A stretch of DNA of 64,000 nucleotides from a virus (IMGVR_UViG_3300017956_006678:1-64000), one strand, 5' to 3'; positions 32,134 to 59,482 are shown, counted from the first letter of the stretch. Notes: a model not told the origin generated them from the sequence alone. Numbers and translations are program-made.

Positions 32134-32831
32134 TATGTAGCTCAACCACTCATCAGATAAAAAAAGACATATATGAGTGTAAAGATTGTGGTCATATATA
32201 TGTGAACTATATGGGTGACGGATTAGATTATCACAAAAACACACATAGAAGAGACAAAAAAAGTGGAATTAGAGGGAACAATGAGATTGATGGTGAAACA
32301 TTTACGCAAGCTTTTCACGATAGACGAAAAATTATATGTGATAATAGAAAAAAATATATAAAACCTTATATTGAAAACTTGAATAGTATTTTAGACATAG
32401 GCGCTGGAGGGGGAACTTTTTTAAATCACGTATCTAAATCATTTAATACACTGCATAGTACTGAAATAAGCACTATATGTATAAATAATTTAAAAAAACA
32501 AGGTTACTATGTTTATGAAGGAAACTTTTCTGATTTAAAAATTATTAAAAAATATGATGTTGTTACATGTTGGCACGTTTTAGAACATGTCAAGGAGATG
32601 AATTCTTTTATTGATAAGTTAAGTCTCGTAACAGGAAATTATCTTTTTTTAGAAGTACCTACTAAGCGTGGTTTAATTAATGATGTACAAGAAAATTTTG
32701 ATGGCCATTATCATTATTTTTCTAAAAATTCTTTAAAAATAAAACTAGAAAAAAATTTTAAAATAGTTAAAATTGAAGAACCAGGAATACAGAAACCCTC
32801 TATAACCGTAGTAGCTGTACCTAAATCATGA
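32121..32831 (+). CDS. Class I methyltransferase with N-terminal Zn ribbon (Methyltransf_23-like)
   Basis: CVVC...CKDC, ILDIGAGGGTFL, WHVLEH, LEVP. Confidence 0.88.
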   Translation: MECVVCSSTTHQIKKDIYECKDCGHIYVNYMGDGLDYHKNTHRRDKKSGIRGNNEIDGETFTQAFHDRRKIICDNRKKYIKPYIENLNSILDIGAGGGTFLNHVSKSFNTLHSTEISTICINNLKKQGYYVYEGNFSDLKIIKKYDVVTCWHVLEHVKEMNSFIDKLSLVTGNYLFLEVPTKRGLINDVQENFDGHYHYFSKNSLKIKLEKNFKIVKIEEPGIQKPSITVVAVPKS

Positions 32832-33652: not shown

Positions 33653-33653
33653 G

Positions 33654-34385: not shown

Positions 34386-34403
34386 GATAGAGGGAGGATA
34401 TTA

Positions 34404-37895: not shown

Positions 37896-37950
37896 ATGTT
37901 TACTTTAATGGTCTGTAAGATAAAATTATCTCTAATTAAAGAGGTAATTG

Positions 37951-39204
37951 ATGGAAGAAAATAAAAAATTTAAAGTTGTTATTCTTGCAGATCACGCACT
38001 TTCTACTAGCGGCGTAGGTACTCAAACTAGACATTTGGTTGAAGGCCTTTTGAAAAAAGGTTGTTGGTCGTTTAGACAATTTGGGGCTGCTTTAAAACAT
38101 GCAGACTATAGAACTGTTGTTGTTAATGAAGATTTTGTCATTAAACCTATTGATGGATTTGGTAATCCTGAACTTATAAGAGTTACATTAGCAACTGAAA
38201 AACCTGATCTTATTTTTATTTTTACTGATCCTAGATTTTTTGTGTGGCTATTTGAGATGGAAGATGAAATACATCAGGTTTGTCCGATTGTTTGGTGGCA
38301 TGTTTGGGATAATTATCCGTACCCTAAGTTTAATACGCCTTTTTATGAATCAACAGATCTAATTAATTGTCATTCACATATGACTTACACTATGATTAAA
38401 GATAAGTTCCCAGCTAAAACAAATTTTATACCTCATGCTCTGCCAGAAAATATTTTTCACCCAATTACAAAAAATGAAAAAATTAATTATAAAAATGAAA
38501 TACTAGGAAACGAAAAGGCAGACTATTTCACAACAATTTGGGTAAATAGAAATGCTAAAAGAAAAAGACCTAGTGACGTTTTAGCATCTTGGAAGATGTT
38601 TTTAGAAAAACTTAAAAAAGAAAAAGGACACCAAAAAGCAACCTTAATTATGCACACTGACCCATACGATCAAGAAGGTCCTAATTTAATAGCAGTATCT
38701 GAAAACTTAGGAATACAAGATACAGTTATATTCTCTAGAGAGAGGATAGATTTTGCAAAGATGAATATACTGTACAATATTTCTGATTGCTGCATTAGTA
38801 TGTCCTATGCTGAAGGTTTTGGACTGTCAACTCTAGAATCAATGATGACAGGGACACCTATTATTGCACCAAAAACTGGAGGATTAACTAGACAAGTTGT
38901 TGATCATCGAGATGAAAGTCACAATGGTGTTGCTTTAGATATATCAATGAAAACCCTGGTAGGAAGTCAATCTGTACCTTATATTTATGAAGACTATGCG
39001 TCATGTGAAGATGCATCAGAAGCACTTTATAAAATGTATAGTTTGTCTGCAAAAGAAAAAGAAAAATTATCAGAAAAAGTATTAGAATATGCACACACCC
39101 AATTTGGAATGCAAAATACTATTGATAAGTGGCATGATTCAATGATTGATATAATCAAAAATTGGAAAAACAATTATCAAAGATTAGATGTACAAGAAAT
39201 ATAA
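37951..39204 (+). CDS. GT4-like glycosyltransferase
   Basis: SGVG, NRNAKRK, AEGFGLSTLESMMTGTP. Confidence 0.9.
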   Translation: MEENKKFKVVILADHALSTSGVGTQTRHLVEGLLKKGCWSFRQFGAALKHADYRTVVVNEDFVIKPIDGFGNPELIRVTLATEKPDLIFIFTDPRFFVWLFEMEDEIHQVCPIVWWHVWDNYPYPKFNTPFYESTDLINCHSHMTYTMIKDKFPAKTNFIPHALPENIFHPITKNEKINYKNEILGNEKADYFTTIWVNRNAKRKRPSDVLASWKMFLEKLKKEKGHQKATLIMHTDPYDQEGPNLIAVSENLGIQDTVIFSRERIDFAKMNILYNISDCCISMSYAEGFGLSTLESMMTGTPIIAPKTGGLTRQVVDHRDESHNGVALDISMKTLVGSQSVPYIYEDYASCEDASEALYKMYSLSAKEKEKLSEKVLEYAHTQFGMQNTIDKWHDSMIDIIKNWKNNYQRLDVQEI

Positions 39205-39217
39205 TAAGAGGACAATA

Positions 39218-40390
39218 ATGAAAGTTTTACTTAGAGCACCTTTGCTTTCTTTATCAGGTTATGGAATACATTCTAGACAAATATTTGAATGGTTAGAAAC
39301 AATTCCAGGAATAGAATTAACTGTTGAAATATTACAATGGGGAACAACAACTTGGTTAGTTAATGAGTCTACACAAAATGGTTTGATTGGTAGAATTATG
39401 GAAAAATCAAGAGAGTTACAGACACCTTATGATGTTACATTTCAAGTTCAACTTCCTGATGAATGGGATACTAAATTAGGAAAAATCAACATAGGTGTTT
39501 CAGCTTATGTTGAAACAAATAAATGTTCACAAAAATGGTTAGATGCGACAAACAAAATGGATCACATTATAGTGCCTTCTAATTTTACTAAAAATGTTAT
39601 TTTAAAGTCAGGGAATGTAAAGCCTGAAATCTCAGTTGTTCCAGAGTGGTTTAATCAAGAAATAGAAAATAATAAAAAGTCTAAACCTAAGTTACATTTT
39701 AACAAAAAGTTTAATTTCTTAATGATTGGAACAGTTACTTCTAGAAATCCGGATGATGATAGAAAAAATATGCTGTATGGAATTAAATGGTTTTGTGAAA
39801 CATTTAAAGACAATAAAAACGTAGGTCTTATTTTAAAAACATCATTTGGTAAAGGTACAATGATTGATAGACATCTAACACTTAATACTGTTAAGGGTGT
39901 TTTAAAAGAAGTAAGGAAAGGAGATTACCCTAAAGTAACTGTTGTACATGGTAATATGACACAGAAAGAAATTGCTGACTTATATAAACATTCAAGAGTA
40001 AAATGTTTAATATCACCTACAAGAGGTGAAGGATACGGATTACCCCTTGTAGAGGCTGCAGCTTCAGGTTTGCCGGTAATGGCAACCAACTGGTCCGGTC
40101 ATTTAGATTTTTTAGAAGATAAATTTATTAAAATAGACTATGACTTAGTAAACATAAATAAGTCAAGAATTGATAATAGAATATTTGTTGAAGGCACCAA
40201 GTGGGCAATGCCTAATGAATTACAATTTAAAAGAAAACTTAAAGAAGTATACGAAAATATTGAAAAATTCGAAAACAATTCAAAAGTTTTAAAGAAAAAT
40301 GTTTTAAAAAATTTCTCTAAGAAAAGTATTATAAAGATATATGATGAAGTATTTGAGAAAATAAAAATTAAAAATTCAATAGAAGGATAA
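39218..40390 (+). CDS. GT4-like glycosyltransferase
   Basis: SGYG, DRKN, RGEGYGLPLVEAAASGLPVMATNWSGHLDF; ATG at 39218 with GAGGA SD. Confidence 0.9.
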   Translation: MKVLLRAPLLSLSGYGIHSRQIFEWLETIPGIELTVEILQWGTTTWLVNESTQNGLIGRIMEKSRELQTPYDVTFQVQLPDEWDTKLGKINIGVSAYVETNKCSQKWLDATNKMDHIIVPSNFTKNVILKSGNVKPEISVVPEWFNQEIENNKKSKPKLHFNKKFNFLMIGTVTSRNPDDDRKNMLYGIKWFCETFKDNKNVGLILKTSFGKGTMIDRHLTLNTVKGVLKEVRKGDYPKVTVVHGNMTQKEIADLYKHSRVKCLISPTRGEGYGLPLVEAAASGLPVMATNWSGHLDFLEDKFIKIDYDLVNINKSRIDNRIFVEGTKWAMPNELQFKRKLKEVYENIEKFENNSKVLKKNVLKNFSKKSIIKIYDEVFEKIKIKNSIEG

Positions 40391-44452: not shown

Positions 44453-44962
44453 ATGACAAATTTTAATTTTAAAAGTTCAGGTAAGAAATTTGGTAGATCA
44501 GAAAATAACAAAACAACAATTAAAAATAACATTGATGATGAATTAGAACCCTTTGGAATACTGACACCACTTCAGCTTTCTCAAGATGATAAAAGTTCTC
44601 TCTTTAAAATGAGTTTTGATATTACTGAACAAATCAGAGATAATTTAAGAAATTTACTTTTAACTTCACCTGGAGAGCGACTAGGAAGATACGATTATGG
44701 TGCAGGATTAAGAGACTTAACTTTTGAAATGATTGCACAAAATGATGATTATGAATCTAAAATTATGGAAGTAATATCTGAAAATGTTGGCAAATATATG
44801 CCTTATGTTAATCTTAAGACGCTAACAACTGAAGACGTTAAAATAGAAACAATGTCAAGTGACAGACCTTTAGCTAAATTAATATTAGAAATAAAATATG
44901 AAGTGCCTGCTTTATCATTAACGAATCAAAAAATTGTTCTCGTATTATATGTAGCAGGATAA
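44453..44962 (+). CDS. Baseplate wedge subunit, T4 gp25/GPW-like
   Basis: QIRDNLRNLLLTSPGERLGRYDYGAGLRDLTFE and YMPYV motifs. Confidence 0.9.
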   Translation: MTNFNFKSSGKKFGRSENNKTTIKNNIDDELEPFGILTPLQLSQDDKSSLFKMSFDITEQIRDNLRNLLLTSPGERLGRYDYGAGLRDLTFEMIAQNDDYESKIMEVISENVGKYMPYVNLKTLTTEDVKIETMSSDRPLAKLILEIKYEVPALSLTNQKIVLVLYVAG

Positions 44963-44993
44963 TTAATTTTAAATCTAAGGAAAGGGAAATAAA

Positions 44994-46835
44994 ATGGCGA
45001 CAAATGTTAAGAAAGATTTAAAAAAAGCTAGAGATTTAAGTTATCTCAATAAAGATTTTGACAGTTTTAGATCAGACTTATTAGAATATTCTAAGATTCA
45101 TTACAGTGATGTTATTAAAGATTTTAGTGAGGCAGGTCTAGGTGGTTTATTCTTAGATATGGCAGCTTACGTAGGTGATGTTATGTCATTTTATCTAGAT
45201 CACCAATTTAGCGAATTGAGTTTGGAAACTGCGATAGAAGATAAAAACATTATCCAGCATATTAAAGATGCAGGAGTAAAAATAAGAGGGGCTAGCCCTA
45301 GTTTTTGTGAAGTCGAATTAATACTTTCAATAGCAGCAGAAATTAAAAATGGAGTTTATAGACCAGCTGAAGCACAGCTTCCTATAATTAAAGCAGGTAC
45401 AATTGTATCGTCAATTGATGGTATTGATTTTGAAGTTTTGGAGGATATTGATTTTTCTGAAACTGATATATACGGCAATCTTAAAGCAGAATATGTTGTT
45501 GACTTTGTTGATGGTCAAAATAATCCGACAATTTACTTGGTAAAAAGGAATGCTGTTGTATCGAGCGGGAAAACCAATACAGAAACTTTCACATTAGGCA
45601 CATATGTTCCGTTTAGAACAATAACTTTAAGTAATTCAGACGTCACAGAGATATTATCAGTAAAAGACAGCGAAGGAAACATATACTATGAAGTAGATAA
45701 TCTTTCTCATGATATTGTTTTTAATGCAATACCTAACAAAGAGGAGGATGAAGACAAGTCAGGCTTCAGTTTGACTTTAGATCCAGCGCCTAGAAGATTT
45801 ATTACAGAAGTTAATTATGAAACCGGTTTGTCTAAAATTAGATTTGGGTCAGGGAAATCAGAATACGAAGATGAGGAAGTAATTGAAGACCCGACAGACT
45901 ATGCACTACCTCTCTATGGAGAACGTTTGAATTTTAAAATTAATGCAGTAGATCCAGGTAATTTATTAGAAACAAAAACTTTAGGGATATCCCCCCAAAA
46001 TACTACGTTAACTGTAAGATATAGATATGGTGGAGGCGTTAATCACAATGTTACGCCTAGATCGATCAATACAGTTAAAACAGCAATTATGGAATATAAA
46101 ATTAATACTTCACCAATTATTCAAAATTCTGTGACTAACTCTTTAATAGTTAATAATCCTAGAAGCGCTAAAGGTGGAGAATCTAGACCGTCTTTAGAAG
46201 AATTAAGAAATATAGCATTTAGTGCTAAGTCTAGTCAAGCAAGAATTGTAAATGTCCAAGATTTACTTTATAGAGTGTACACAATGCCAGCAAAATTTGG
46301 AAAAGTCTACAGAGTTGGTGTTTCAAAAAATCCAGTATCCAATAGCGTATTAATACATGTTGTAAGTAGAGATAATAGAGAAAAGTTAACATTAGCCAAT
46401 GATACACTCAAAGATAATATTGCACTTTATATTAATCAATACAGGCTGATATCTGACAGTTATGATATTGTCGACGCAGCAATTACAAATATATCGATCG
46501 AATATATTATATCTGTAGAAAATGGATATAACAGTAACGAAGTAATATCTAGATGTAATTTATTTTTAAGAAATTATTTAGATACCAAGAATATGCATAT
46601 TGATATGCCGATCAATAAAACCGATTTGACAAATTTGATAATTAACGCAGAAGGTGTTGAATCTTTAGCCGGTATTCGCGTTATAAATAAACGAGGGTCA
46701 CAAGAAGGTAGGGTTTATTCAAATGTATCATTTAGCCCAAATGAAAACACAAGAAGACAAAAAGTTTATCCACCCACAGGCGGGATATTTGAAGTAAGAT
46801 ATCCTGAAGCTGATATTAAAGGAGCAGTTTTATAA
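44994..46835 (+). CDS. Baseplate wedge subunit, T4 gp6/baseplate J-like
   Basis: YLNKDFDSFRSDL, DFSE...G..FLDMAAYVGDVMSFYLD, IRFGSG, VRYRYGGG, AKGG, QARIV...D. Confidence 0.9.
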   Translation: MATNVKKDLKKARDLSYLNKDFDSFRSDLLEYSKIHYSDVIKDFSEAGLGGLFLDMAAYVGDVMSFYLDHQFSELSLETAIEDKNIIQHIKDAGVKIRGASPSFCEVELILSIAAEIKNGVYRPAEAQLPIIKAGTIVSSIDGIDFEVLEDIDFSETDIYGNLKAEYVVDFVDGQNNPTIYLVKRNAVVSSGKTNTETFTLGTYVPFRTITLSNSDVTEILSVKDSEGNIYYEVDNLSHDIVFNAIPNKEEDEDKSGFSLTLDPAPRRFITEVNYETGLSKIRFGSGKSEYEDEEVIEDPTDYALPLYGERLNFKINAVDPGNLLETKTLGISPQNTTLTVRYRYGGGVNHNVTPRSINTVKTAIMEYKINTSPIIQNSVTNSLIVNNPRSAKGGESRPSLEELRNIAFSAKSSQARIVNVQDLLYRVYTMPAKFGKVYRVGVSKNPVSNSVLIHVVSRDNREKLTLANDTLKDNIALYINQYRLISDSYDIVDAAITNISIEYIISVENGYNSNEVISRCNLFLRNYLDTKNMHIDMPINKTDLTNLIINAEGVESLAGIRVINKRGSQEGRVYSNVSFSPNENTRRQKVYPPTGGIFEVRYPEADIKGAVL

Positions 46836-48361
46836 TGTATAGAATTATTTCAGGAAGTAAAGACACATATATAACTAATAGAATAATCAATAATACATTT
46901 AGAGCGACTGATGCAAATGTAGGTTTGGCTGGGACATTAGATCTTTTCAAGCTTTATGATGAATCAACAATATCAGGAGAGACGTCACCTATTGAATTTT
47001 CTAGATTATTAATTAAGTTTGATTACGGTCCTATACAAACATTAATTAATAACGGTGAAATAGACATTGATAGTAATTCTTTTAATGTAACTTTAAAGCT
47101 TAAAGACGTTTATGGGGGTCAAACAACTCCTGCTAATTTTAAGATTATCGCAATGCCTTTAGCTAAAAATTTTGATGAAGGTAAAGGAAGGGATATAGTT
47201 AATTTTGCTGATGTTGGCGCTACAAATTTTATAACTGCATCATATTCAAATGGATCAGCAAATGCATGGGATATATCAGGTGCACGTGCTTCTGGAAGTT
47301 TAGGCTCTAGTAATTTAGATGTTTATATTAGTGGGAGTTTAGCTGGACCTAGTGGAACAAGTATTGTTAATTTAACTGCAGAAAAATATTTTGCGACAGG
47401 AAAAGAAGATTTAGAACTTGATATAACTACCGCGGTATCTGCTTCCCTCTCAGGGCAGATGACTAATCATGGATTTGTAATTGCATATTCCGGATCGTAT
47501 GAAACTGATGCAAAAACATATTTTGTAAAAAGATTTGGATCAATAAATGCGTCAAATATCTATGACAGACCTTCAATGATAGTAAAATATGATGATAGCA
47601 TATTAGATAATCATAGAAATTTTGTTTTTGATGTTACCGGATCCTTATTTTTAAATAATTTTCATAGAGGCGTAAGAAGTAATATTCTCTCAGGCACTAG
47701 TGCAACGCAAGTATCTGGTTTGGATTGCATGAAATTAATTCTCAAATCTGGTTCATATGCTAGTACGCATTCTGTATCACAACATAAAGTGGGCAATAAT
47801 TTTAAAACTGGAATATATTCAGCATCTTTTGCAATTAGCGAATACCATGCTGACTTAATTCATAATGCAAAGTCAGCCAGGTCAGCTTCATTTACACAAA
47901 TATGGTCATCAAATGATTTAACAATAGGTTATCTAACCGGATCTTTGATTATTGAATCTCCTTTTAGAAGTTCTTATGATGGATCGATAGAAAGAATTCT
48001 TGTAACATGTAAGAATCTTAAATCAAATTATAGAAAAAATGACAGAGTGAAAGTTAGAGTTTTTGTTGAAAATAGAAATGAAAAAGTTATATTTCAAAAA
48101 TTACCTACAGAAAAATTATCTGAAGTATACAATAACATGTATTTTAGAGTTGTTGATGTACAAAAAAATGAAGTAGTAATTCCATTTGATACGAATAGAA
48201 ACTCTACCAGGTTATCTTCTGACTCTGACGGTATGTTTTTTATGATTGATATGGATAGTTTAACTCCGGGAAGAGCATATAAGTTTGAATTTCTAATTAG
48301 AGACTTTGATAATGACTTTTTTGTTAACGATGCTTCTGGGAAATTTATTATTAACAATTAA
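46835..48361 (+). CDS. Putative virion structural (baseplate-associated) protein, beta-rich
   Basis: Coupled to the gp6-like gene; SKDTYI, SRLLIKFD, FDEGKG motifs; Ser/Gly-rich. Confidence 0.6.
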   Translation: MYRIISGSKDTYITNRIINNTFRATDANVGLAGTLDLFKLYDESTISGETSPIEFSRLLIKFDYGPIQTLINNGEIDIDSNSFNVTLKLKDVYGGQTTPANFKIIAMPLAKNFDEGKGRDIVNFADVGATNFITASYSNGSANAWDISGARASGSLGSSNLDVYISGSLAGPSGTSIVNLTAEKYFATGKEDLELDITTAVSASLSGQMTNHGFVIAYSGSYETDAKTYFVKRFGSINASNIYDRPSMIVKYDDSILDNHRNFVFDVTGSLFLNNFHRGVRSNILSGTSATQVSGLDCMKLILKSGSYASTHSVSQHKVGNNFKTGIYSASFAISEYHADLIHNAKSARSASFTQIWSSNDLTIGYLTGSLIIESPFRSSYDGSIERILVTCKNLKSNYRKNDRVKVRVFVENRNEKVIFQKLPTEKLSEVYNNMYFRVVDVQKNEVVIPFDTNRNSTRLSSDSDGMFFMIDMDSLTPGRAYKFEFLIRDFDNDFFVNDASGKFIINN

Positions 48362-48372
48362 GGATAAAAGTA

Positions 48373-51300
48373 ATGAAAAAGAGTTTAACATTAGGAAATA
48401 CAAAATTATTTGATCCTTCAGTTAAAAGAAATGAGAATTTTTTTAGTGATGAGGCTTTTTCAGATTTTGATTTTAAATCTGACAATGATCTTTTATTTGA
48501 ATCTAAAAGAGGTACCTCTAGATCAGGGCAATCATCAAAAACTTCGAAGTTTGGAAAAATATATTCAACTAGAGAATTAAATATTGATTTTTCTAAATTT
48601 GAAAATCATACTTTTTTTGATTCTGCTGTTTCTAAAACAAATATAGCATTTGATCGAGTCATCAATAAGTTTCCTTTTGATCAGAGAAAATCTGATATTG
48701 AAGATTTTAAAAATGACGGAACAGGTTATGAAAATTATGTTTATGATCAATTTCCAAAAAATAAAGGTTTTATTCATTTCATATCAGCATCAAATCAACA
48801 CATAGCCATCAAAGATTTGTCTGGGTATTTATATAGTACTGATAATGAAAAGAAAACCAATAATCCTGTATTCTCTCCGCTCAAAAGGGGTTTTACTACA
48901 GAATTTTGGTTAAGAGTCCCAGAAGAATCAAATCAAGAATCTATCGTATGTCAACTTATTGATACTAGTCGTGCAGGATTTTCTATATCTTTAAGCGGGT
49001 CATCTGATTCGGCAACAAATTGCAATTTAAGTTTTACTGTGATTAGCGGGTCTAATGCAGAGACAATTACCACTTCATTAAAAAAAGGTGAATTCAAGTT
49101 TATATCTGCAGTTTATGACAACAATAAGAAGAATTCACAAATTTATATAGATTCCCAACTTAAAGTTACTTCGTCATTTAGAGATTTTGATAACTTAGAA
49201 ATGAAATTGTCTGACTTTTTAATTGGATCAGGAAGTTCGTACACAGATGATGATGTTAATAGCACTACTTTTTTACCGCTAACAACCTTGTCAGGGGCAA
49301 TTGATGAATTTCGTTATTATCATGGTGCAAAAGGTATTACACAAATTCAAGATACACAATACACATCTACTTTTTTAGATGCAGAAGATAATCTAGATTT
49401 AATACTATATATGAAATTTAATGAACCTGCAGGATCATACACAGGTAATAGTATTGTTTTGGATTATTCAGGAAATAGTTTGCATTCTCAAATAACAAAT
49501 TTCAGTGTAGCAATGAGAAATTCAGGGTCAGTTGCTACTATTCCTATAAAAAAAGAAAAATTATCAGATTGTCCAGTACTTTTTGCTGATAATTCAAATG
49601 TAAAATCTTTAAATACAAACTTATTGACTTCTGCATCACTTTATGATGAATTTAATCCTAATTTAATTACAAAACTTGTCCCAGTACATTATTTTCTAGA
49701 AGGACAACAAGAAGAAGGTTTTTCTAACTTGACAGGAAGTTTAGGAAATTCTTATGTAGGCGGTAATTTACCTAATACGGGTAAGTTAGGTTCTGGGCAA
49801 CTATTAATGTCATTTCTTCTTATATGGGCAAAGTTTTTTGATGAAATAAAGATAAGTATTGATGCTATGGCGGATATACTTCATGTATCGTATGATGATT
49901 TTGAAGGTTCTTCACCAAATTTTTACAAATTAATTGCTGAAAATAGAGGAATTAGACTTCCTAATATCATTGATAGCAATATAAGTTTTGATAAATTCCA
50001 AGATGGAATTAATATTAATAACACAGGAACTACTTCTGTGTATTCTCTCAATGATTTTCAAAATGAAATCTGGAAGAGAATCCTTATCAATATCAGACAC
50101 ATTTATAAGGAAAAAGGAACAAGACGATCATTTCAATCATTGTTCAATACACTAGGTATTGATTTTGATAAGTACTTTTCTTTAAAAGAATACGGAGGTT
50201 CTAGATACCATTATTTAAGTGACTTAAGAAAAGAAGATAAGAAAGTTATTAAATTTATTGACTTAAGTGGTTCCTTTGCAGTTAGAAGTGATGCTGATAA
50301 AGCAGATATCGATGCGCAAGGTTTAAGCAAAGGTACCTCCGGAATTAATTCAGCACCTTATTTAATATCTCCTTTTTTATCTAGTTCTAGAATTGAAACC
50401 GGTTTTCCCGATATAGACGGAACATACGTTCAAAAAAATATATTTCCTCCGCATGGAATATCTAATGCAGTGTCAGATGGTTTGTTGACATCAGGATCAT
50501 TCACTTATGAAGGAATATACAAATTCGTAGGAAGTCACCATGTAACACAAAGTTTAGTTAGACTTCATGTAACAGGAACAGCTGCACCAAGTTCAACATC
50601 TGGAGGAGTCTTAACAAATCTAATTGCAATTAATGATGGTAATAATTCTAAAATCAAGCTTTACGTTAAACCTCATGTTTCTTCTGTTGAAAATGATTTT
50701 TTAGAAATGCAAATAACTAGTGCTAGTCTATTTGATGGTAACCCGTGGTATGTAAGTTTTGGAAAAATAAGAAATGATGACAATATATTTTATAATTCTG
50801 TTGATATTAAAAATACACCATCAAGTAGTTTCTTTTTAAGATGTGGAAGATTAGATAGCGGAAGAAAAAATGTTTATTTTACAACATCAAGTTTTTATAA
50901 TGAAAAATCAAGAAAGAATAATCAAACTAATTATTTTAATTCTATTGGCACAACTTTAAATGCAAGTGGTGCATACGCCTTAATAGGATCCCAATCAATC
51001 ACTGAGTCTCCTCGTTTTTTAAATTCTGATCAAGTTGAAAGTGAAGCCAGATATACAAATTTTTCTGGGCAAGTAAGTGGAATTAGATTCTATAGTAAAG
51101 CAATCACAAAAAAAGGTTTCAAAGAAAGAATAAACAATCCTTTTTCTTTGTCTGTAAAGGATCCTATAAGAAATTATAATCATACGACAAAATTAACCGG
51201 TTCTTTTGGAAAACTACGCTTAGATAATACAGTTACACGACAAATAACAACAAGTTCAAACGCTTCTGGCGAAATTTCTATATTTGACAATTCACAAAAT

Positions 51301-51909
51301 AATTTTAATTTTACCGGTAAAATGTTTGAAGCTTCAAAAAGAATATTGAAAACAGATCAAATTAAATTTACACGTGTTTCATATGACTTTGATCAAAGAA
51401 TATCTGATGACAAGGTAAGGGTAAGAAGTTACGAATTGCAAAAGAATTTAGAAAATTCTATATACTCAGTTAAAGCACCTCTATATGAGATACCTGAAAA
51501 AGATAAAAATGATAGTGATAAAAGAATTAGTATAGATTTGAGTGCAGTTAAAGCTCTTAATGAAGATATTGTTAAAATGTTTGAAAACTTAGAAGTTTTT
51601 GATGAATATTTAGGCGATCCTCGTGATGCTTTTGAAGATTCTTATATAGACTTAGAAAAAGCGAGAGAGGTGTATTTTAATGATCTTTTGCAAAAATTAG
51701 ATTTAGAAGCACATACTAAATTTTTTACATGGTTTGACAATAGTTTTACTGATCTTTTGCTTAGCTTGGTTCCTTTAGAAACAGTATTTTTAGGCGTAAA
51801 TTATGTTATCGAGCCACATATTTTGGAGAGAAATAAAATAAGATATAATTATAATCATCAATATTTGATAAATTCAAGAAATATTAGTGACGATAATCAA
51901 TTTGGATAA
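48373..51909 (+). CDS. Large baseplate/tail structural protein with LamG (ConA-like) domains
   Basis: FTTEFWL...IYIDSQL...LSGAIDEFRYY...LILYMKFNE is LamG-like; a second copy ends FSGQVSGIRFYSKA; IWKRILIN...KEKGT resembles gp7/P2-I wedge segments. Confidence 0.7.
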   Translation: MKKSLTLGNTKLFDPSVKRNENFFSDEAFSDFDFKSDNDLLFESKRGTSRSGQSSKTSKFGKIYSTRELNIDFSKFENHTFFDSAVSKTNIAFDRVINKFPFDQRKSDIEDFKNDGTGYENYVYDQFPKNKGFIHFISASNQHIAIKDLSGYLYSTDNEKKTNNPVFSPLKRGFTTEFWLRVPEESNQESIVCQLIDTSRAGFSISLSGSSDSATNCNLSFTVISGSNAETITTSLKKGEFKFISAVYDNNKKNSQIYIDSQLKVTSSFRDFDNLEMKLSDFLIGSGSSYTDDDVNSTTFLPLTTLSGAIDEFRYYHGAKGITQIQDTQYTSTFLDAEDNLDLILYMKFNEPAGSYTGNSIVLDYSGNSLHSQITNFSVAMRNSGSVATIPIKKEKLSDCPVLFADNSNVKSLNTNLLTSASLYDEFNPNLITKLVPVHYFLEGQQEEGFSNLTGSLGNSYVGGNLPNTGKLGSGQLLMSFLLIWAKFFDEIKISIDAMADILHVSYDDFEGSSPNFYKLIAENRGIRLPNIIDSNISFDKFQDGININNTGTTSVYSLNDFQNEIWKRILINIRHIYKEKGTRRSFQSLFNTLGIDFDKYFSLKEYGGSRYHYLSDLRKEDKKVIKFIDLSGSFAVRSDADKADIDAQGLSKGTSGINSAPYLISPFLSSSRIETGFPDIDGTYVQKNIFPPHGISNAVSDGLLTSGSFTYEGIYKFVGSHHVTQSLVRLHVTGTAAPSSTSGGVLTNLIAINDGNNSKIKLYVKPHVSSVENDFLEMQITSASLFDGNPWYVSFGKIRNDDNIFYNSVDIKNTPSSSFFLRCGRLDSGRKNVYFTTSSFYNEKSRKNNQTNYFNSIGTTLNASGAYALIGSQSITESPRFLNSDQVESEARYTNFSGQVSGIRFYSKAITKKGFKERINNPFSLSVKDPIRNYNHTTKLTGSFGKLRLDNTVTRQITTSSNASGEISIFDNSQNNFNFTGKMFEASKRILKTDQIKFTRVSYDFDQRISDDKVRVRSYELQKNLENSIYSVKAPLYEIPEKDKNDSDKRISIDLSAVKALNEDIVKMFENLEVFDEYLGDPRDAFEDSYIDLEKAREVYFNDLLQKLDLEAHTKFFTWFDNSFTDLLLSLVPLETVFLGVNYVIEPHILERNKIRYNYNHQYLINSRNISDDNQFG

Positions 51910-51916
51910 GTAAAAA

Positions 51917-53011
51917 ATGACAACATCAATAGTAATCGGTACCAATAAACTTACTGAAAATAATCAAAGTGTATCACAAAAAGATAAGCAATTTAATGAA
52001 GACAGTACTACGTCTTTAGGTGTAAGCGTTGGAAGGAATATAACAATATCTAAACAATCAACGCAAAATGTGTCAGGAGTTAAACATGTGTTTTTTCCTG
52101 CATTAAATAACAATAACAGATACGGAGAATCAACATCAGTTGATGCTTTATCTATCGATGCAAATTTAGAATCCAAGTCTTCACAAGGAATTTCAGTTAA
52201 AAGATTTAATGACACGCAGGGTGATAACCTCCCTTATCTTTATATTGGAAATATGCCGTATCCAAACACAGTTCATGAAAGATTTACACCTTTCTGGAAA
52301 GCTGATATGTACGGAATTCAAGAGCATATTATAAAAAATGATCAATTTTTGGTTTTTGATGATTTAGTGCAAGAATATTCCAATCAAAATTATATAAATA
52401 AATCAAAAAGTGAGCAAAGTTATATTTATCCAGCATTGAGTGGATCTCGTTATTCTAGCGAATTTGATACAAATGCAACAATTGAAATATTAGAAATAAG
52501 ATCAGGATTGATTGGCCCGAAAAGGATAAATACGTTAATTGGAAGTAGCGATATAATTCACAGAGGATTTTTTAGTGGTATATCATGTGATTTAATGGGT
52601 GATAATGAACAATTAAAGAAAGGTGGGAATGTTATTATAGACAGCAAGATTGATGTTAAAGAATTAAACTTAGTAAATAATATTCCTTATAATGACTCAA
52701 AACAAAAAACTTTTTTAAACAATAAGCTCAAACCAATAAGTTACGATGGTTTATACACGAGGTCCTTGCAACCTTTTAATGACAAAAGATCAGAAGAATA
52801 TTTAGACAACAAATATGATTTTGCAGGAACAGATGATAGCATGAAAAATTTACTTTATGGAAATGGAATAGAAGCACCTTACTCTAGGATGAGTGAAATA
52901 GGCACAAGATATCAATCTGCTACGTCAGGTTTTGTTTATGATTCTACGACAATAGGAAGTACAACACTAGGAACAGATTCTATCGCATTTGGTGGATTGA
53001 AAGGAGGATAG
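51917..53011 (+). CDS. Hypothetical structural-module protein
   Basis: 364 aa ORF in the structural operon ending GTDSIAFGGLKGG. Confidence 0.55.
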   Translation: MTTSIVIGTNKLTENNQSVSQKDKQFNEDSTTSLGVSVGRNITISKQSTQNVSGVKHVFFPALNNNNRYGESTSVDALSIDANLESKSSQGISVKRFNDTQGDNLPYLYIGNMPYPNTVHERFTPFWKADMYGIQEHIIKNDQFLVFDDLVQEYSNQNYINKSKSEQSYIYPALSGSRYSSEFDTNATIEILEIRSGLIGPKRINTLIGSSDIIHRGFFSGISCDLMGDNEQLKKGGNVIIDSKIDVKELNLVNNIPYNDSKQKTFLNNKLKPISYDGLYTRSLQPFNDKRSEEYLDNKYDFAGTDDSMKNLLYGNGIEAPYSRMSEIGTRYQSATSGFVYDSTTIGSTTLGTDSIAFGGLKGG

Positions 53012-53014
53012 AAT

Positions 53015-56000
53015 ATGCCTAAAATTACAACAAGCACAACAACAAGTTTGGCCAAATCAATAAAAGCAAACGATACAACGAATGAAACACTTGGATTGGC
53101 TACAACATCCCTTTCGGGTTTTCCAACATCAACAATTAATGTTAATGGATTTACAGTATCTTTTTGGGTTAAACTAGACGGATCTAGCTCAGATGTAAGA
53201 CATGTTTATCATGACGATACAAGGTCAGGAGTGCATGGAGGTGTTTGGTTCCAAACAGCAAATCAGTTATATTTTAGAGCAGTTAATTCTGGAGGAGCGT
53301 ACGGTAGATATTGGTCAATTGATATTGCAGATTATCAGGAATGGGTTCATGTCGCAATAACTTGGGACGGCGACATGAACAATGGTGATACAGAATTGTT
53401 TGTTAACGGTGTTTCTCAGGGTGCAGGAACCAATGCACTCGGCACAGGGTCAGGAACAACTCAGGCAATAACTGACTTATACATTTATGATAAACAAGGT
53501 GTTTTAGATGGTTTTGAACTAAAAGGTGCCCTTGTCGACTTTGCAATGTGGAGTAAGGAATACACTAGCTCACAAATTCAAAACATTTATAATGGTGGCA
53601 TTTATAATGATTATTCAGAAATGGGAGGTGTATACACACCCAACCTAATATTATGGTATAGACTAGGTGAAGAATCAACAATTAGTAGTTTAACAACAGG
53701 CGATAGCTTAAGCGCAGGAACACAATTTGCTGCAGCACATACTAGATCAGGTGTTAGTGGCGCTACGCTTACAGCACAGTCTAATATAGATATGGAAATT
53801 GTAGAAGGTCCATACCAAGTAACAACAACGACAACAACAACTTTTTCCGGAATAACTAGTGATACGCCTAGAAGAACATTGAGAGCAAAGGATGCAGTAA
53901 GTGGACAATATCCTACTATCGCTAGAACTGGCGATTCTTCTAGAATGGGAAATTTTAATATTAATTTTGATGATAGGAATACAATTGTATTTGAAGAAAA
54001 TACTACACTTCTTGAATATCCGCATTTAGGACTTTATCAGTCTTCTCATCCCCTCTTAAAATCAAACGCTTCAGCACATTCTACAACAAATTCTGGAGTT
54101 ATAGTAACAACAGGAAGTTTGGTCAAGGGTATCTCTGATGATTACTTATTAAAGGGTGATAGGGTATTAATAGGGTCAAGGTTAGAAAATGATTTAATAG
54201 CCAACGGCGAAGCTCTATCAGGATCTGTCAATATTACTCCATTTGATGAAAGTAGAATTAATTTAGGAACTAGTACATTTTACATGACAGGAACTGCAGA
54301 AGACGTCTATCCTGGTTTTAGTAGTCGTCTTCACGACAAAACACAAATCGTCATTGATATGACAGCAAATGAGACGACATACTTTGGAAATACTAATAAA
54401 TCAAATGATTCTTCTAGTCCTTACTTATATCAGTCCGATACTTCAGATGTAAAACAACCTTATATGGGTTATTACAATCATATACTTAAAAGATGGGAAT
54501 CTATAGGTCAAGGTTTTGGAATGAACCAGACGTATGGTACAGAATCAAATTTAATCGATATAGTAAAAAAAGCTCAAATTGGATTTGATGGTTGTATTGC
54601 AAAAATAGCTACAGGATCAGATCAAACAGGTAATGATTATCGTCTTTTTAATAATGATACACTTAATAGTACAATGAGGCCTATTTCGACTTTTGGTTTT
54701 CCTTTTGATGGAAGATATCATGCAACTGGGAGTCAAATAATTGACATGAGTCAATATATTAATGCACCTTTTGTTGTTGAAAAAGTTGTTTTTGAATTTA
54801 ACGCACTTATAGAAACAGGTGATAGCCCAGGTACTGGTGATACTGACACAAATGGTTATAGATTAGGAGCAGGATATGGAGACCCGTCAGGCATAGGTAA
54901 TTCTACAGATAGTATTTTTACAAATGTTGAAATTAGAAACTATAACTTTTTCTTGTTAAGACAATTTGAAAGTAAATTTGAAAAAAGTTGGGAAATAATT
55001 ACAGGATCTGGAAGTCCTACTAATGAATCGGGTTTTCGATATGGAAAATTTACAGTAACAAGTAGTATTCCCGGGACTTTTGGGTTAGGAGGCGATAGTA
55101 GCACAATTACATTGGTTAAAGATGAAAGAGAATTAATCACATATGGACAACTTATTGATTATCATGTTGATGCATCAAACCCTCTTACAAATGGATCAGG
55201 TTTTACAAAACAAGACGTTTTAAATAGTCCTCTTATCGCTGGGAGGGATGCAATATTTGAAAGAGAAACAGCATCTTTCGGTCAAACATCAGGTTCATCT
55301 TTAACGGGAAGTTTTATTGTCCCTTGTAATGTTAGGCATACTGCAGGAATACTTCCTGCAAATAGAATGAGAGTTTACACAACAAAAGGGACAGTAACTG
55401 AACTAGCTTTATGGATGCAAAATAGATATTCTAGTAGAGGTAGAGATACTTTAGATAAGTCCTCTAGAGCTTTAGTTAATGGTCATGGTTCAGTTTATAA
55501 AGGAGTTACTGAGAGATTACAACCTTTTTCATCTACAGAAGAGGCATTTCCAATAACACCTTCAGCAGCTGAAACGCTGGATGATCATTCTCCCTACGTT
55601 TTGTTTCCGCAAGATAAAATCATTATAGGTTTTCAATATCCGCCACCTGAAAATTTAAAAACAGCTGGGGGTGTATTTGATGATGTTAGATTAAATAGAA
55701 TGGGTTTTAACGGACCAGGAAAAATTACATTATACGGATCGCAAATTAAAGAAAATAAAGAATTTCATGACACGTTAAATCAAAACTTGACAACCTTAGG
55801 TGTCCATGAGGCAATTCATTATGATAACCCAACATTAGATCAATTTTTAGTTGCAACAGAAGCTGAATACAGTGGAAGCTATATGGATACATATGTTAAG
55901 GGTGGCATTGGATCAGTTGCTAGAAGTATTGTGGGGACAGGCGGTAATGAAATTAGCGGATCTTTGCAGAGATTTAGAGGATTTGATAATAGACAACAGA

Positions 56001-56329
56001 GATATTATGATTCTGTGTTAATTGATATTGAATCTATGTTTAAAGCTGATGGTTATAAGATGTTAGATGGAACAGCAATAGGGTTGTCTGATCCAAGAAT
56101 TAGATTAGGGTCTATTACAACAGTAAGTTCTGGAGAATTTGTTCATAATTCTTGGCATGCAATATTTCCTTTTGAACCTCGTTATCATAATTCTGCTAAA
56201 AAAATATCACAAAAAATTTATCTTTATCATGTAGGAGCAGAAAATGATAGTACAGGAAATTTATTTAATCGCTCCAATTTTAGTTTTTTAGGAACAGATG
56301 TTACAACTGACGCAGATTTAGAAAAATGA
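53015..56329 (+). CDS. Large tail/baseplate protein with N-terminal LamG domain (5' part of an interrupted ORF)
   Basis: FTVSFWVK, WVHVAITWD, LFVNGV, GALVDFAMWS, LILWYRL are LamG-like; the frame stays open past the TGA at 56327-56329. Confidence 0.75.
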   Translation: MPKITTSTTTSLAKSIKANDTTNETLGLATTSLSGFPTSTINVNGFTVSFWVKLDGSSSDVRHVYHDDTRSGVHGGVWFQTANQLYFRAVNSGGAYGRYWSIDIADYQEWVHVAITWDGDMNNGDTELFVNGVSQGAGTNALGTGSGTTQAITDLYIYDKQGVLDGFELKGALVDFAMWSKEYTSSQIQNIYNGGIYNDYSEMGGVYTPNLILWYRLGEESTISSLTTGDSLSAGTQFAAAHTRSGVSGATLTAQSNIDMEIVEGPYQVTTTTTTTFSGITSDTPRRTLRAKDAVSGQYPTIARTGDSSRMGNFNINFDDRNTIVFEENTTLLEYPHLGLYQSSHPLLKSNASAHSTTNSGVIVTTGSLVKGISDDYLLKGDRVLIGSRLENDLIANGEALSGSVNITPFDESRINLGTSTFYMTGTAEDVYPGFSSRLHDKTQIVIDMTANETTYFGNTNKSNDSSSPYLYQSDTSDVKQPYMGYYNHILKRWESIGQGFGMNQTYGTESNLIDIVKKAQIGFDGCIAKIATGSDQTGNDYRLFNNDTLNSTMRPISTFGFPFDGRYHATGSQIIDMSQYINAPFVVEKVVFEFNALIETGDSPGTGDTDTNGYRLGAGYGDPSGIGNSTDSIFTNVEIRNYNFFLLRQFESKFEKSWEIITGSGSPTNESGFRYGKFTVTSSIPGTFGLGGDSSTITLVKDERELITYGQLIDYHVDASNPLTNGSGFTKQDVLNSPLIAGRDAIFERETASFGQTSGSSLTGSFIVPCNVRHTAGILPANRMRVYTTKGTVTELALWMQNRYSSRGRDTLDKSSRALVNGHGSVYKGVTERLQPFSSTEEAFPITPSAAETLDDHSPYVLFPQDKIIIGFQYPPPENLKTAGGVFDDVRLNRMGFNGPGKITLYGSQIKENKEFHDTLNQNLTTLGVHEAIHYDNPTLDQFLVATEAEYSGSYMDTYVKGGIGSVARSIVGTGGNEISGSLQRFRGFDNRQQRYYDSVLIDIESMFKADGYKMLDGTAIGLSDPRIRLGSITTVSSGEFVHNSWHAIFPFEPRYHNSAKKISQKIYLYHVGAENDSTGNLFNRSNFSFLGTDVTTDADLEK

Positions 56330-56782
56330 TTTTTTAATTCGTCATTTGCTGCTTTTTCATTTGGATCCGGCCAAAGAAACATGTTTAAATTTGTTAATGG
56401 CACTACACGTTTACATCGTCCAAAAGGGTTTAAATATGGTATTATTAATGCATTACCACAATTTACCAAAAATATATATCGAGGTGATAAATTTGGTCAA
56501 AGAGCAGATATGTTAGAACAAGCACAGGATAGCAGGTTTTTAGTAGGTAGCAGTTTTACTTCTGATGGACCGCTAAGAATTAGATTTGTTTTAGATGATG
56601 ATGATAATGACCAATATGTTTATTTGAATGAAAATGAAATCATAAATAATACGTATGAATCATCAAATCTGAGCATATATGCAACTTCTTCACTTCCGTT
56701 TTTTGATGATGAAACACCTAGAAATAGAGATTATGATAATATAAGTTTACCTAGTAGTATTTTAGAAGTTGTATCAACTTAG
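56330..56782 (+). CDS. In-frame continuation (C-terminal ~150 aa) of the 53015 protein; called separately from ATG 56381 in the ORF track
   Basis: 56381-53015=3366 (divisible by 3); 17 sense codons lie between the TGA and the ATG; no obvious SD before 56381. Confidence 0.65.
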   Translation, partial: FFNSSFAAFSFGSGQRNMFKFVNGTTRLHRPKGFKYGIINALPQFTKNIYRGDKFGQRADMLEQAQDSRFLVGSSFTSDGPLRIRFVLDDDDNDQYVYLNENEIINNTYESSNLSIYATSSLPFFDDETPRNRDYDNISLPSSILEVVST

Positions 56783-56794
56783 AGGTAACGACTA

Positions 56795-59482
56795 ATGGCA
56801 AAGAAAAAAATTAGAGGAAAAACTATTAAATTAGCTGATGCAAATAAAGCTGATTATATAGTTCGAAAAAATGATGGCATCAATATTGACACTGTTACAT
56901 TTCCTAGCGACGTTCAAATTGGACTAGCTTCAGGAAAAAATAGTAATTTAACTGTCACGGGACAAATCAAAGGATCGATTCAAGAAACAAAAGATGGTTT
57001 GCCATATCTTGTTGCAGGTACAGGTATAACAATTGCCACAGGATCTAACGGTCAGGTGACAATAGAATCTTCTGGAGGTGGAGCATCAGGAGATATAACA
57101 AGTGTAATTGCTGGTAATGGTTTAACAGGAGGAGGGTTAACTGGAGATGTTACACTTAATGTTGGATCTGGAACAGGAATAGATGTAGGGGGAAATTCAA
57201 TCAGTGTTGATGTTTCTGATTTTATGTCTAATGGAGCAGCTAATAGAATACTGACAGCCACGGGCCCAGATACAATGCAAGCAGAGTCTTTGTTATTATT
57301 TGACGGGACAACACTATCTGTGCCTAATAAAATTAAAGTTTCTGGGGATGTACATTTAACCAACACTGATCCATTTCTTGTCACAAATAGCACAAATTTA
57401 AAAGTCCAGTCATCTGGAAGCATATGGGCACAAATTGATGATGGAGGAGATAAAACTTCAAGTTTCAGAATATATTCAGGCTCGCAAATAATAATGAATG
57501 TCGAAAGTAGTAACTTTTCAACAACGTTTCCTGCCGGAGATATTTTTATAACAAATAATAATGACTTAAGATTAAATACAGGCGGAACAATAGTCTTAGA
57601 TAATAATAGCGATTCTGAAGTATACCTCAGCTCTTCAAGTGGATTATCTTTGGACATTGACAGTAATAATATCCTTAATTTATACGCAGACAATAATATA
57701 ATTCATTATTTAGGAGATCATCAGGCTGGAACGTATTCTAGAAATTCTTTTAATGCAGGAAACAACACGTTTAACGTGGACAATGATGATATGGACTTTA
57801 GAGTGCATACAAGCAACTATGAAGGTACATTCTTTGTTGATGCCGGCGACGATACTGTAATAATAGGCGCACAAGATTTTGATTCAACCCCAGCAGCTTC
57901 AGAGCTTCTTTCAAAGGGTTATGGTAACGATGTTAAAATAATGTTGTCTGGGACTTATGACTCTAAGGACAGTTCGACCCGAGGTGTTGTTTTAATGACA
58001 GGTGACACAACAGTTTCCGGAAACTTGTATATAGCAGGAGACACTTCCGCAAAAAGAAAAATCTCATCGATCGGATCAATGGAAATTAGGTCTATAGATG
58101 GGACAACTTCTGTTGTCGGAGATAACAATGTTAATGTTTGGATTGGTTATGATGGAGCAGGTTCAAATCAATCATTTTCCATTTATAAGGGCACGGGAGG
58201 TTATGAGCAAATATTTGTTGTTAGTGAAGACAAATCAGTTAGAATATTTGGTGAACTAGATGTTGAAAGTAATTTAGTTGTTCATTTAGATTACGACTCT
58301 GATAATTCAAATTCTTATTTTGGAACTAAAAATGGAGGCGGAACTTTTAATCAGGTTTTTTATGAAGATGGAAGAGCTTATTTTAATTATAGTAGACAGT
58401 CAACAGGAAATTTTATAGTCAATGGAGATAATGATTATGGATTAATATTTGTAGATGCTGGAGAGGACGCTGTTGCTTTAGGTAGTGCAATAGATATAAA
58501 TCCTAATTGGTCTGAACTTACAGAAACCGGAACAGATGTTAAAGTATTATTATCAGGAACAATCGGTTCCAAAGATGGTTCAACACGAGGGGTTACATTA
58601 GCAGCGGGTGATTTTGCTGCTTCTGGGAGCATATACACGGGAGGCAACTTACTTTCACTAGATAGTACATTGGCTTTAAATGCTAGTTCTGAAGTTAGTT
58701 CTTTTGTATCTTCAAATAAAAATGCCACATATTCAAGTGCAACTGAGTTTAATACAAATCGAGCTGATGTTGATTTTGAAGTTAATACAGATGATTATTA
58801 TGGTACATTTTTTATTGATGGTAATGACAATACAATAATAATAGGACATGAACTATTTGACAGTTCCCCATCAGCATCAGAAGTTTCCGGATATGGTAAT
58901 GATGTTAAAATTATGTTATCTGGATCTGCCGGATCAAAAGATACTTCTAATAGAGGTGTTGTTTTAGTGACAGGTGATTTAGTTGTCTCAGGGACTACTC
59001 ATTTAACTAATTTAACCAGCCCGGGAAGCATATTATCATTTAGAAATTTTAATACAGTAAATGCAGAAGACTTTGATGTGCCTACAAGTTTTAACTTTAT
59101 AGAAGGGATCACTTCTGGAAAGGCATACATAACATTTGATGCACCTTCAACAGGAAACGTTGAGTTAGAATTTAGTGTCTACGTTGAACAAACTGGTGCT
59201 GGCGCTGACTTGTTTATGGCATTATCAACAAATGGATCTACATGGACAACTATTTCAAATACAGATGTAAAAGTTTTTGATGGAGATGAGAATGACGATG
59301 GATATCGAACATTTAAATGGATTCTTACCGGTCTAACCTCTGGAACTTCTTATACATATTATTTTGGGGCAGAGTCTAATAGTAGTACTGGTATTGACCT
59401 TAATTGGGGAAAAGCTTCTGCTGCTATTGGTTACCCACCTTTAATAATGAAAGCAACATCACTTCCAAATACTATTACGTAG
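56795..59482 (+). CDS. Tail fibre-like protein with internal repeats
   Basis: YLVAGTGITI and GDITSVIAGNGLTGGGLTGDVTLNV fibre-type motifs; Gly/Ser/Thr-rich; repeated modules. Confidence 0.75.
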   Translation: MAKKKIRGKTIKLADANKADYIVRKNDGINIDTVTFPSDVQIGLASGKNSNLTVTGQIKGSIQETKDGLPYLVAGTGITIATGSNGQVTIESSGGGASGDITSVIAGNGLTGGGLTGDVTLNVGSGTGIDVGGNSISVDVSDFMSNGAANRILTATGPDTMQAESLLLFDGTTLSVPNKIKVSGDVHLTNTDPFLVTNSTNLKVQSSGSIWAQIDDGGDKTSSFRIYSGSQIIMNVESSNFSTTFPAGDIFITNNNDLRLNTGGTIVLDNNSDSEVYLSSSSGLSLDIDSNNILNLYADNNIIHYLGDHQAGTYSRNSFNAGNNTFNVDNDDMDFRVHTSNYEGTFFVDAGDDTVIIGAQDFDSTPAASELLSKGYGNDVKIMLSGTYDSKDSSTRGVVLMTGDTTVSGNLYIAGDTSAKRKISSIGSMEIRSIDGTTSVVGDNNVNVWIGYDGAGSNQSFSIYKGTGGYEQIFVVSEDKSVRIFGELDVESNLVVHLDYDSDNSNSYFGTKNGGGTFNQVFYEDGRAYFNYSRQSTGNFIVNGDNDYGLIFVDAGEDAVALGSAIDINPNWSELTETGTDVKVLLSGTIGSKDGSTRGVTLAAGDFAASGSIYTGGNLLSLDSTLALNASSEVSSFVSSNKNATYSSATEFNTNRADVDFEVNTDDYYGTFFIDGNDNTIIIGHELFDSSPSASEVSGYGNDVKIMLSGSAGSKDTSNRGVVLVTGDLVVSGTTHLTNLTSPGSILSFRNFNTVNAEDFDVPTSFNFIEGITSGKAYITFDAPSTGNVELEFSVYVEQTGAGADLFMALSTNGSTWTTISNTDVKVFDGDENDDGYRTFKWILTGLTSGTSYTYYFGAESNSSTGIDLNWGKASAAIGYPPLIMKATSLPNTIT
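57778..58993 (+). repeat. Three copies of a ~75-80 aa module inside the fibre gene
   Basis: F.V...Y.G.FF.D...D....G...GNDVKIMLSG...SKD.S.RGVVL.TGD..VSG at about 57778-58021, 58409-58627 and 58763-58993; DNA similarity between ggttatggtaacgatgttaaaataatgttgtctgg and ggatatggtaatgatgttaaaattatgttatctgg. Confidence 0.85.

Follow-up and report, generated by a model that had tools for sequence, protein, structure and literature searches.

The window, a 64,000-nucleotide stretch of DNA (IMGVR_UViG_3300017956_006678:1-64000), is part of a 74.6-kb IMG/VR record from an uncultured aquatic T4-like phage that is ~21% complete by estimate. Three outer baseplate proteins encoded in it, of 508, 1178 and 1104 amino acids (aa), carry an order-specific excess of the tripeptide Ser/Thr-Gly/Ala-Ser ([ST][GA]S), and we tentatively interpret this motif as an O-glycosylation acceptor tag that may be read by a phage-encoded pair of GT4 glycosyltransferases, GT4a and GT4b (37948-40390). 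An earlier note, made from the DNA sequence of the window alone, had drawn attention to the tripeptide through hand counts and had linked it to O-glycosylation by an adjacent 26-kb gene island.

The motif was counted in the window open reading frame (ORF) by ORF and compared with 2000 shuffles of each protein. The hand counts of the earlier note (11, ~11, ~12 and ~6 in the 508-aa, 1178-aa, 1104-aa and fibre-like proteins) were reproduced exactly, and the shuffles single out the first three of these proteins. The 508-aa protein has 11 sites against a shuffle mean of 1.47 (z 8.1), within the 1-2 that the note had expected, the 1178-aa protein has 11 against 2.54 (z 5.4), and the 1104-aa protein has 12 against 3.40 (z 4.9), amounting to a 3.5- to 7.5-fold enrichment across the three proteins and to 34 sites versus 7.4 expected when they are pooled. 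The 895-aa fibre-like protein, which the note had counted among the enriched ones, falls outside this group: its 6 sites stand against a shuffle mean of 4.15 (z 1.0, p 0.22), and none of the six is followed by L, F or Y, the residues that directly follow 10 of the 11 sites in the 508-aa protein, as the note had seen. The remaining 52 ORFs of the window are at chance (17 sites vs 16.35 expected), the 30 enzymes of the island hold 5 sites in 8564 aa (4.15 expected; the note had seen 4-6 in ~8000 aa), and no site occurs in the gp25-like, gp6-like and 476-aa proteins, matching the claim of essentially none in gp25-, gp6- and spike-like proteins.

The excess persists in the enriched proteins when residues are shuffled within blocks of 10, 20 or 40 (z 3.8-6.6), and it depends on residue order: each of the three proteins contains [ST][GA][ST] 14 times and its permuted orders 2-7 times. 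SGS ranks first among the tripeptides of the 508-aa protein in an unbiased scan. A logo of the 33 fully flanked sites shows a hydrophobic residue at -1 in 55% and at +1 in 70%, and the extended pattern hydrophobic-[ST]-[GA]-S-hydrophobic is found 14 times in the three proteins versus 0.76 expected (~18-fold), compared with 1 versus 1.9 expected in the 52 other ORFs. Each of the 11 sites of the 508-aa protein sits in a distinct 9-mer, and pairwise BLAST among the three motif-rich proteins detected neither homology nor a common domain, arguing that the motif is a peptide-level feature and not a repeat; the note had likewise described the sites as non-tandem and selected at the peptide level. Domain duplication as the cause of the excess is ruled out by the same BLAST comparison.

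The sites are also conserved among homologues. Across 25 homologues of the 508-aa protein (50-78% identity), each of its 11 sites recurs in 7-24 sequences, and the hydrophobic residue that follows the site is almost invariant. In the 1178-aa protein, seven of the 11 sites each recur in 33-48 of 51 homologues, whose median count is 15 sites. In a family alignment of the 508-aa protein (245 sequences, 33-97% identity), Ser/Thr occupies 80% of the cells at motif position 1 and 74% at position 3, with Ala/Gly in only 2-3%, compared with 51% Ser/Thr and 10% Ala/Gly in other Ser columns. The residues replacing Ser/Thr at these two positions are mostly charged, position 2 is small in 67% of the cells, and the flanks are hydrophobic in 63% (-1) and 79% (+1). 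The alignment indicates that the property conserved at positions 1 and 3 is the hydroxyl.

In the AlphaFold2 (AF2) model of the 508-aa protein (predicted local distance difference test, pLDDT, 79), three domains can be read: an N-terminal jelly roll resembling carbohydrate-binding modules (CBMs; residues 1-253), an Ig/IPT-like domain (255-380) and an Ig/FN3-like domain (385-508), with 6, 5 and 0 sites, respectively. DSSP places 7 of the 11 sites fully in strands and one at the tip of a two-residue hairpin. As modelled, the motif is a strand with S-x-S facing outward and Gly/Ala in phase with the core. The earlier note had assigned the motif to surface turns; the turns did not stand, while the motif Ser/Thr are apparently exposed, as read from DSSP, strand phase and the substitution patterns. 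Distant family members (27-41% identity; for example P0262, P0266 and P0234) have 1-3 sites each and show residues such as ISD, SDQ, TNR and YAD at the motif columns. Because these homologues keep the fold with unrelated polar or charged residues at those positions, the fold does not need the motif. Collectively, parallel hydroxyl-selected conservation in unrelated virion proteins and independence from the fold argue for a common reader of the motif.

Both GT4 proteins match Pfam PF00534 (Glycos_transf_1) and carry the EX7E motif of the GT4 family. The start of GT4b overlaps the end of GT4a by 17 nt, and every relative whose upstream DNA extends over at least 9.5 kb (63 of 63) has both genes. 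GT4a has a median identity of ~65% across relatives, and its nearest Atlas clusters are 87-100% viral, placing it by sequence in what appears to be a virus-private subfamily. Its AF2 model is a canonical two-Rossmann GT-B fold (pLDDT 87), and the nearest structures are MshA, B736L of chlorovirus NY2A, BshA and glycogen/sucrose-phosphate synthases, with template modelling (TM) scores of 0.70-0.75 to MshA and B736L. Directly 3' of GT4b lies a 113-aa ORF (40402-40743) that is kept in 74 relatives' loci; its N-terminal segment is strongly hydrophobic (Kyte-Doolittle 2.6), unlike that of any other protein encoded in the 13-42 kb interval.

The GT4 pair and the motif occur together beyond the window. 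Relatives of the gp6-like protein are found in two cultured phages, Flavobacterium phage immuto and Microcystis phage Mel-JY01, and in an uncultured 484-kb phage, and all three possess GT4a. In immuto, a PD-(D/E)XK nuclease, GT4a and GT4b are adjacent and followed by a sugar island, and a scan of 95 ORFs revealed a motif excess in virion proteins only: the proteins after gp6 (5 vs 0.8 and 8 vs 2.3 expected), the spike/fibre proteins gp101-103 (7 vs 2.2, 9 vs 2.3 and 44 vs 11), gp056 (13 vs 1.7) and the sheath (8 vs 2.6, all but one site lying before residue 276). The whole-genome scan of Mel-JY01 gave 8 enriched ORFs, that of Rhodothermus phage RM378 a weaker cluster, and the metagenomic relatives G001 and G011 have 5-9 enriched ORFs. 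GT4a and GT4b are both found in immuto, Mel-JY01, RM378 (with a weak GT4b match), G001 and G011; that is, a clustered excess is present in every tested phage having the GT4 pair. No enriched protein was detected among 14 T4 structural proteins and no enriched ORF in the whole genomes of Syn9 and HTVC008M. P-SSM2 has a single enriched protein, which is collagen-like and of low complexity (NC_006883.2, 18953-20746; G-P-x repeats with C-terminal HSFSGSGS repeats); this excess is a false positive from low complexity and a different phenomenon. GT4a is absent from Syn9, HTVC008M and P-SSM2, GT4b is absent from Syn9 and P-SSM2, and T4 gave no GT4a match in the phage collection. These four pair-less phages belong to a different clade.

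The gene order around the pair was compared between lineages. The order of PD-(D/E)XK nuclease, GT4a and GT4b at 37050-40390 of the window equals that at 48008-51927 of immuto (NC_055915.1) and is kept despite only ~33% identity between the two lineages, while the trio is preceded by the variable sugar island in the window lineage and followed by it in immuto. In Mel-JY01 (PP395634.1, 3065-8430), a motif-rich "structural protein" (14 sites vs 3.2 expected) is directly followed by a 1226-aa protein that carries the annotation methyltransferase FkbM and also contains a GT4b-like segment.

The variable island itself is, by its gene content, a genuine glycan-synthesis locus. It encodes two GT2 and three GT4-like glycosyltransferases, NeuB, a CMP-sugar synthetase (cytidylyltransferase) and a pyruvyl transferase, together with RmlD-like, GDP-mannose-dehydratase-like and UDP-glucose dehydrogenase nucleotide-sugar enzymes, and further contains methyltransferases, a radical SAM/SPASM enzyme and a 2-oxoglutarate (2OG) oxygenase. 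NeuB and the CMP-sugar synthetase are present, yet no NeuC or Pse/Leg aminotransferase family was seen in the Pfam scans of the island. Its content differs among relatives; UDP-glucose dehydrogenase, for example, is found in 13 loci only. The earlier note was right that a glycan locus adjoins the tail genes, but the motif tracks the GT4 pair and not the variable island. The 31 proteins encoded from 13.3 to 40.4 kb have no predicted membrane segment (19-residue window, Kyte-Doolittle mean of at least 1.6), and no flippase, ABC exporter, polymerase or priming-transferase family is among the Pfam matches of the island, in which seven ORFs have no match at all. These absences fit a cytoplasmic acceptor. 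Within the window the locus does not look like one for undecaprenyl-phosphate-dependent surface polysaccharide, a comparison limited by the fraction of the genome in the record (~21%) and by host enzymes, which could substitute.

The motif-rich genes lie directly downstream of the gp25-like and gp6-like wedge genes, as in the periphery of T4-type baseplates (Table 1), and the order gp25-gp6-p508-p1178 is kept in 145-153 of the 153 relatives' loci searched. More than 1688 metagenomic homologues of the 508-aa protein are known at 90% clustering, and at 50% identity they amount to 1697 clusters; the protein has no match in Pfam, PHROG or PDB sequences, its family profile gave nothing useful against PDB, and tblastn found no match in cultured phages. 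By structure, its jelly roll resembles the chondroitin-sulfate-binding CBM 8wab_B (VIA Z 15.4, root mean square deviation 3.0 over 169 aligned residues) and the alginate-binding CBM 7vbo (VIA Z 13.8), and the model suggests that this domain has a glycan-binding role in host recognition. The 1178-aa protein likewise has no Pfam, PHROG or PDB sequence match, and a PDB sequence search with the fibre-like protein returned nothing useful. In the 1104-aa protein, only 1 of the 12 sites lies in the N-terminal LamG_3 domain. The earlier note had treated 53015-56782 as one continuous protein; in the window an in-frame TGA at 56327-56329 interrupts this tail gene of ~1250 codons, while the two halves form a single ORF in 34 of 34 relatives, and the intact counterpart in the closest relative (L003) has 1302 aa. 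The TGA could be a sequencing error, a pseudogene mutation or a programmed readthrough site. The T4 late-promoter motif TATAAATA occurs 15 times in the window versus 17 expected and is uninformative on timing.

Table 1. Coordinates of the glycan-synthesis and baseplate features in the window (sites, [ST][GA]S).
Feature	Coordinates	Strand	Remarks
Variable glycan-synthesis island	14716..37004	+	Pfam scans
GT4a, soluble GT-B/GT4 glycosyltransferase	37948..39204	+	EX7E intact (E289-E297)
GT4b, second GT4	39188..40390	+	EX7E intact (E281-E289)
gp25-like and gp6-like inner baseplate wedge proteins	44453..46835	+	PHROG matches; 0 sites, internal negative controls
Peripheral baseplate protein, 508 aa, 11 sites	46835..48361	+	Directly 3' of the gp6-like gene
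Baseplate protein, 1178 aa, 11 sites	48373..51909	+	Counts; homologue conservation
LamG_3 protein, 1104 aa, 12 sites	53015..56329	+	5' part of gene split by in-frame TGA
133-aa ORF, 0 sites	56381..56782	+	Same frame; 3' part of the gene begun at 53015
Fibre-like protein, 895 aa, 6 sites	56795..59482	+	Not enriched

We rank O-glycosylation first, at somewhat less than even odds, because the private GT4 pair is the only candidate found to track the motif and lies beside a wholly soluble glycan locus. In the proposed mechanism, hydrophobic-[ST]-[GA]-S-hydrophobic would be a short tag on exposed beta-strand faces of outer baseplate proteins, read by a common trans-acting factor, most likely the phage's own soluble glycosylation machinery. 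In the cytoplasm, either ahead of tail assembly or in its course, GT4a and GT4b would add the first sugar or sugars to a motif Ser/Thr, and the upstream variable island would extend a lineage-specific glycan with nonulosonic acid, pyruvate and methyl groups, so that the tail tip would become coated with glycans. The attachment of sugar, the acceptor residue and the responsible enzyme are what we infer here from the conservation and the gene neighbourhood. The motif resembles a sequon in its order-specific enrichment and in its conserved hydroxyl, which is predicted to be exposed.

Several observations weigh against O-glycosylation. The excess lies at fixed alignment columns: the 508-aa family has 6 core and 11 intermediate ones (17 in all), the 1178-aa family 12 and 16 (28 in all). 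Sporadic sites are no more frequent than permuted controls (0.91 vs 0.80-1.07 per sequence); there is no sign of continuing site gain, and sites are not gained rapidly. In the model, strand-embedded sites between buried hydrophobic residues suit a structural element, and the strand position would make enzyme access on the folded protein less obvious. The motif is not avoided in non-virion proteins, as the chance-level count in the 52 other ORFs of the window shows. By fold GT4a is a generic GT4, the PDB sequence matches of the pair are likewise generic, and PDB sequence searches revealed no likeness of GT4a or GT4b to known protein O-glycosyltransferases; the sugar could instead be transferred to DNA, a small molecule or a host glycan. 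Finally, no relative without the pair was found, the pair being present in 63 of 63 loci as well as in G011, immuto, Mel-JY01 and RM378. Scans of viral and metagenomic contigs with the low-motif family members P0262 (1 site), P0266 and P0234 (2 sites each) and with P0229 and P0254 returned no usable relative, only one weak partial match (L212) and one contig of 6.9 kb, and a scan with P0272 led to G010 and G011, both still with GT4a and GT4b. Among the low-motif homologues, P0262 is encoded on a Logan contig of 57 kb and P0261 on one of 122 kb. The motif-positive phages, all with a gp6-like baseplate and the GT pair, are probably one clade, so their co-occurrence may reflect a single evolutionary event and is correlative.

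Many of these points are claimed by a close rival to O-glycosylation, which we nonetheless consider somewhat unlikely: a lineage-specific structural or assembly element without covalent modification. Hydrophobic-S-G-S-hydrophobic would then be the clade's favoured way to build exposed strands, hairpins and fibre repeats, for example with Ser hydroxyl ladders or ST-turns bridging subunit interfaces by hydrogen bonds, and with tight packing permitted by a small inward residue. Consistent with such an element are the strand and hairpin positions in the 508-aa model, the Gly/Ala in phase with conserved hydrophobic residues, the restriction of the excess to fixed columns without a surplus of sporadic sites, and the phylogeny that confounds the link to the glycosyltransferases. 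In addition, the motif in the immuto fibre and spike is spaced every 4-6 residues (TGSLSTSGSLGVTGS and FTGSFSGSF.GDGSGLTG), as is typical of fibrous beta repeats, a spacing that also counts against the acceptor-tag interpretation. However, distant homologues retain the fold with charged residues in place of the motif, and the avoidance of Ala/Gly at positions 1 and 3 argues that small size is not what is selected. The same tripeptide is moreover conserved in non-homologous jelly-roll, Ig-like, sheath and fibre proteins, which favours a common reader over independent packing needs, and no enriched protein was found among the tested T4 structural proteins, Syn9 and HTVC008M.

If a reader exists, it need not be a glycosyltransferase. 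The motif could be a tag for phosphorylation, for acylation, or for a chaperone or assembly factor that recognises exposed S-G-S strands, an explanation that we regard as improbable. Hydroxyl-specific conservation and parallel enrichment call for a reader without naming which, and methyltransferases, a radical SAM enzyme and a 2OG oxygenase are also among the products of the island; against this, the GT4 pair alone was found to track the motif across lineages, and the PrkA module is the sole protein kinase seen in the window. This module is part of a SpoVR-like/YeaH-like/PrkA triad at 6285-10739, which is 81% identical in G001. The earlier note had offered phosphorylation by PrkA as its alternative, and this is hardly credible in spite of the triad shared by the window and G001, since the complete genomes of immuto, Mel-JY01 and RM378 and the 157-kb contig G011 all have the motif excess, and in none of them was PrkA or the rest of the triad found. 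Equally remote is the possibility that the excess stems from composition, or from choosing the motif post hoc, in Ser/Gly-rich beta proteins: the motif was indeed picked after reading the sequence, and across whole control genomes it is mildly overrepresented (1.2- to 1.5-fold over composition), but the excess withstands local block shuffles, permuted orders are not enriched, and the motif as first defined on a single protein is found again in two unrelated ones and in conserved columns of hundreds of homologues.

Taken further, O-glycosylation of the baseplate would make the motif the first defined phage O-glycosylation sequon, read by the GT4 pair and elaborated by the island, in thousands of aquatic T4-like phages with strain-specific glycan coats. 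We view this wider proposition as possible though rather doubtful; it would cover abundant phages of Bacteroidota and cyanobacteria, with coats on their host-recognition apparatus. No such motif turned up in the literature searched. Were it a sequon, phage virion glycosylation would gain a readable sequence signature, by which glycosylated proteins and sites could be predicted from metagenomes, and the retention of a private GT pair and large soluble sugar islands beside tail genes would be accounted for. Glycans on baseplate and fibres may in that case shape adsorption, host range, aggregation or resistance to grazing in the sea. Cultured carriers exist in immuto, Mel-JY01 and RM378. Should the motif be structural instead, it would represent a rule by which this clade builds exposed beta domains, and its interest would lie mainly within structural virology.

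Among known systems, giant viruses encode their own glycosylation of chlorovirus capsid and mimivirus fibrils, and chlorovirus glycans are N-linked at atypical sequons. They resemble the present case in their large, soluble, clade-variable glycan clusters acting on virion surface proteins, and B736L of chlorovirus NY2A is the second-best fold match of GT4a; they differ in being viruses of eukaryotes and in having no S-G-S motif. A second parallel is GtfA/GtfB, the O-GlcNAc transferase pair of serine-rich-repeat adhesins, which is encoded by adjacent GT4-fold genes and acts on substrates rich in S-A-S and S-x-S. Runs such as TSASYASTASY in the immuto spike gp101 are reminiscent of these substrates. 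GtfB is catalytically inactive and GtfA carries a DUF1975 insert, whereas GT4a and GT4b both keep EX7E and have no DUF1975 match in Pfam. Furthermore, GtfA/GtfB are absent from the PDB sequence matches and from the listed Foldseek matches of the GT4 proteins, and the candidate substrates here are folded beta domains in contrast to the disordered repeats modified by GtfA/GtfB.

The bacterial autotransporter heptosyltransferases (BAHTs) of the TibC/TibA and Aah/AIDA-I systems are cytoplasmic enzymes that hyperglycosylate many Ser residues on a beta-rich surface protein, and they recognise local beta structure rather than a long sequence (PMC4358343), in both respects similar to what is proposed here. 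They differ in being iron-binding dodecamers that use ADP-heptose and do not belong to GT4, with beta-helix repeats as substrates (PMC4358343), and no BAHT-like protein was seen among the window proteins. Closer in ecology are the "moraphages", large aquatic Bacteroidota phages with four core glycosyltransferase orthogroups, for which virion glycosylation was named by the authors as one possibility (PMC12619734). Like the phage studied here, they are large phages of aquatic habitats with gp6, gp25 and PhoH genes and conserved glycosyltransferases; neither the motif nor an acceptor is reported in that paper (PMC12619734). According to the passages on mycobacteriophages in the same paper, virion glycosylation by phage-encoded glycosyltransferases has been shown by chemistry (Freeman et al. 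2023; PMC12619734), while the case made here is known from sequences alone. As described in those passages, the mycobacteriophage glycans are located at the C-termini of capsid and tail-tube subunits, whereas the candidate sites here are internal, in baseplate beta strands and marked by a short motif (PMC12619734). The two systems agree, as far as those passages go, in the proposed cytoplasmic O-glycosylation of a phage's structural proteins by soluble glycosyltransferases that it encodes itself (PMC12619734).

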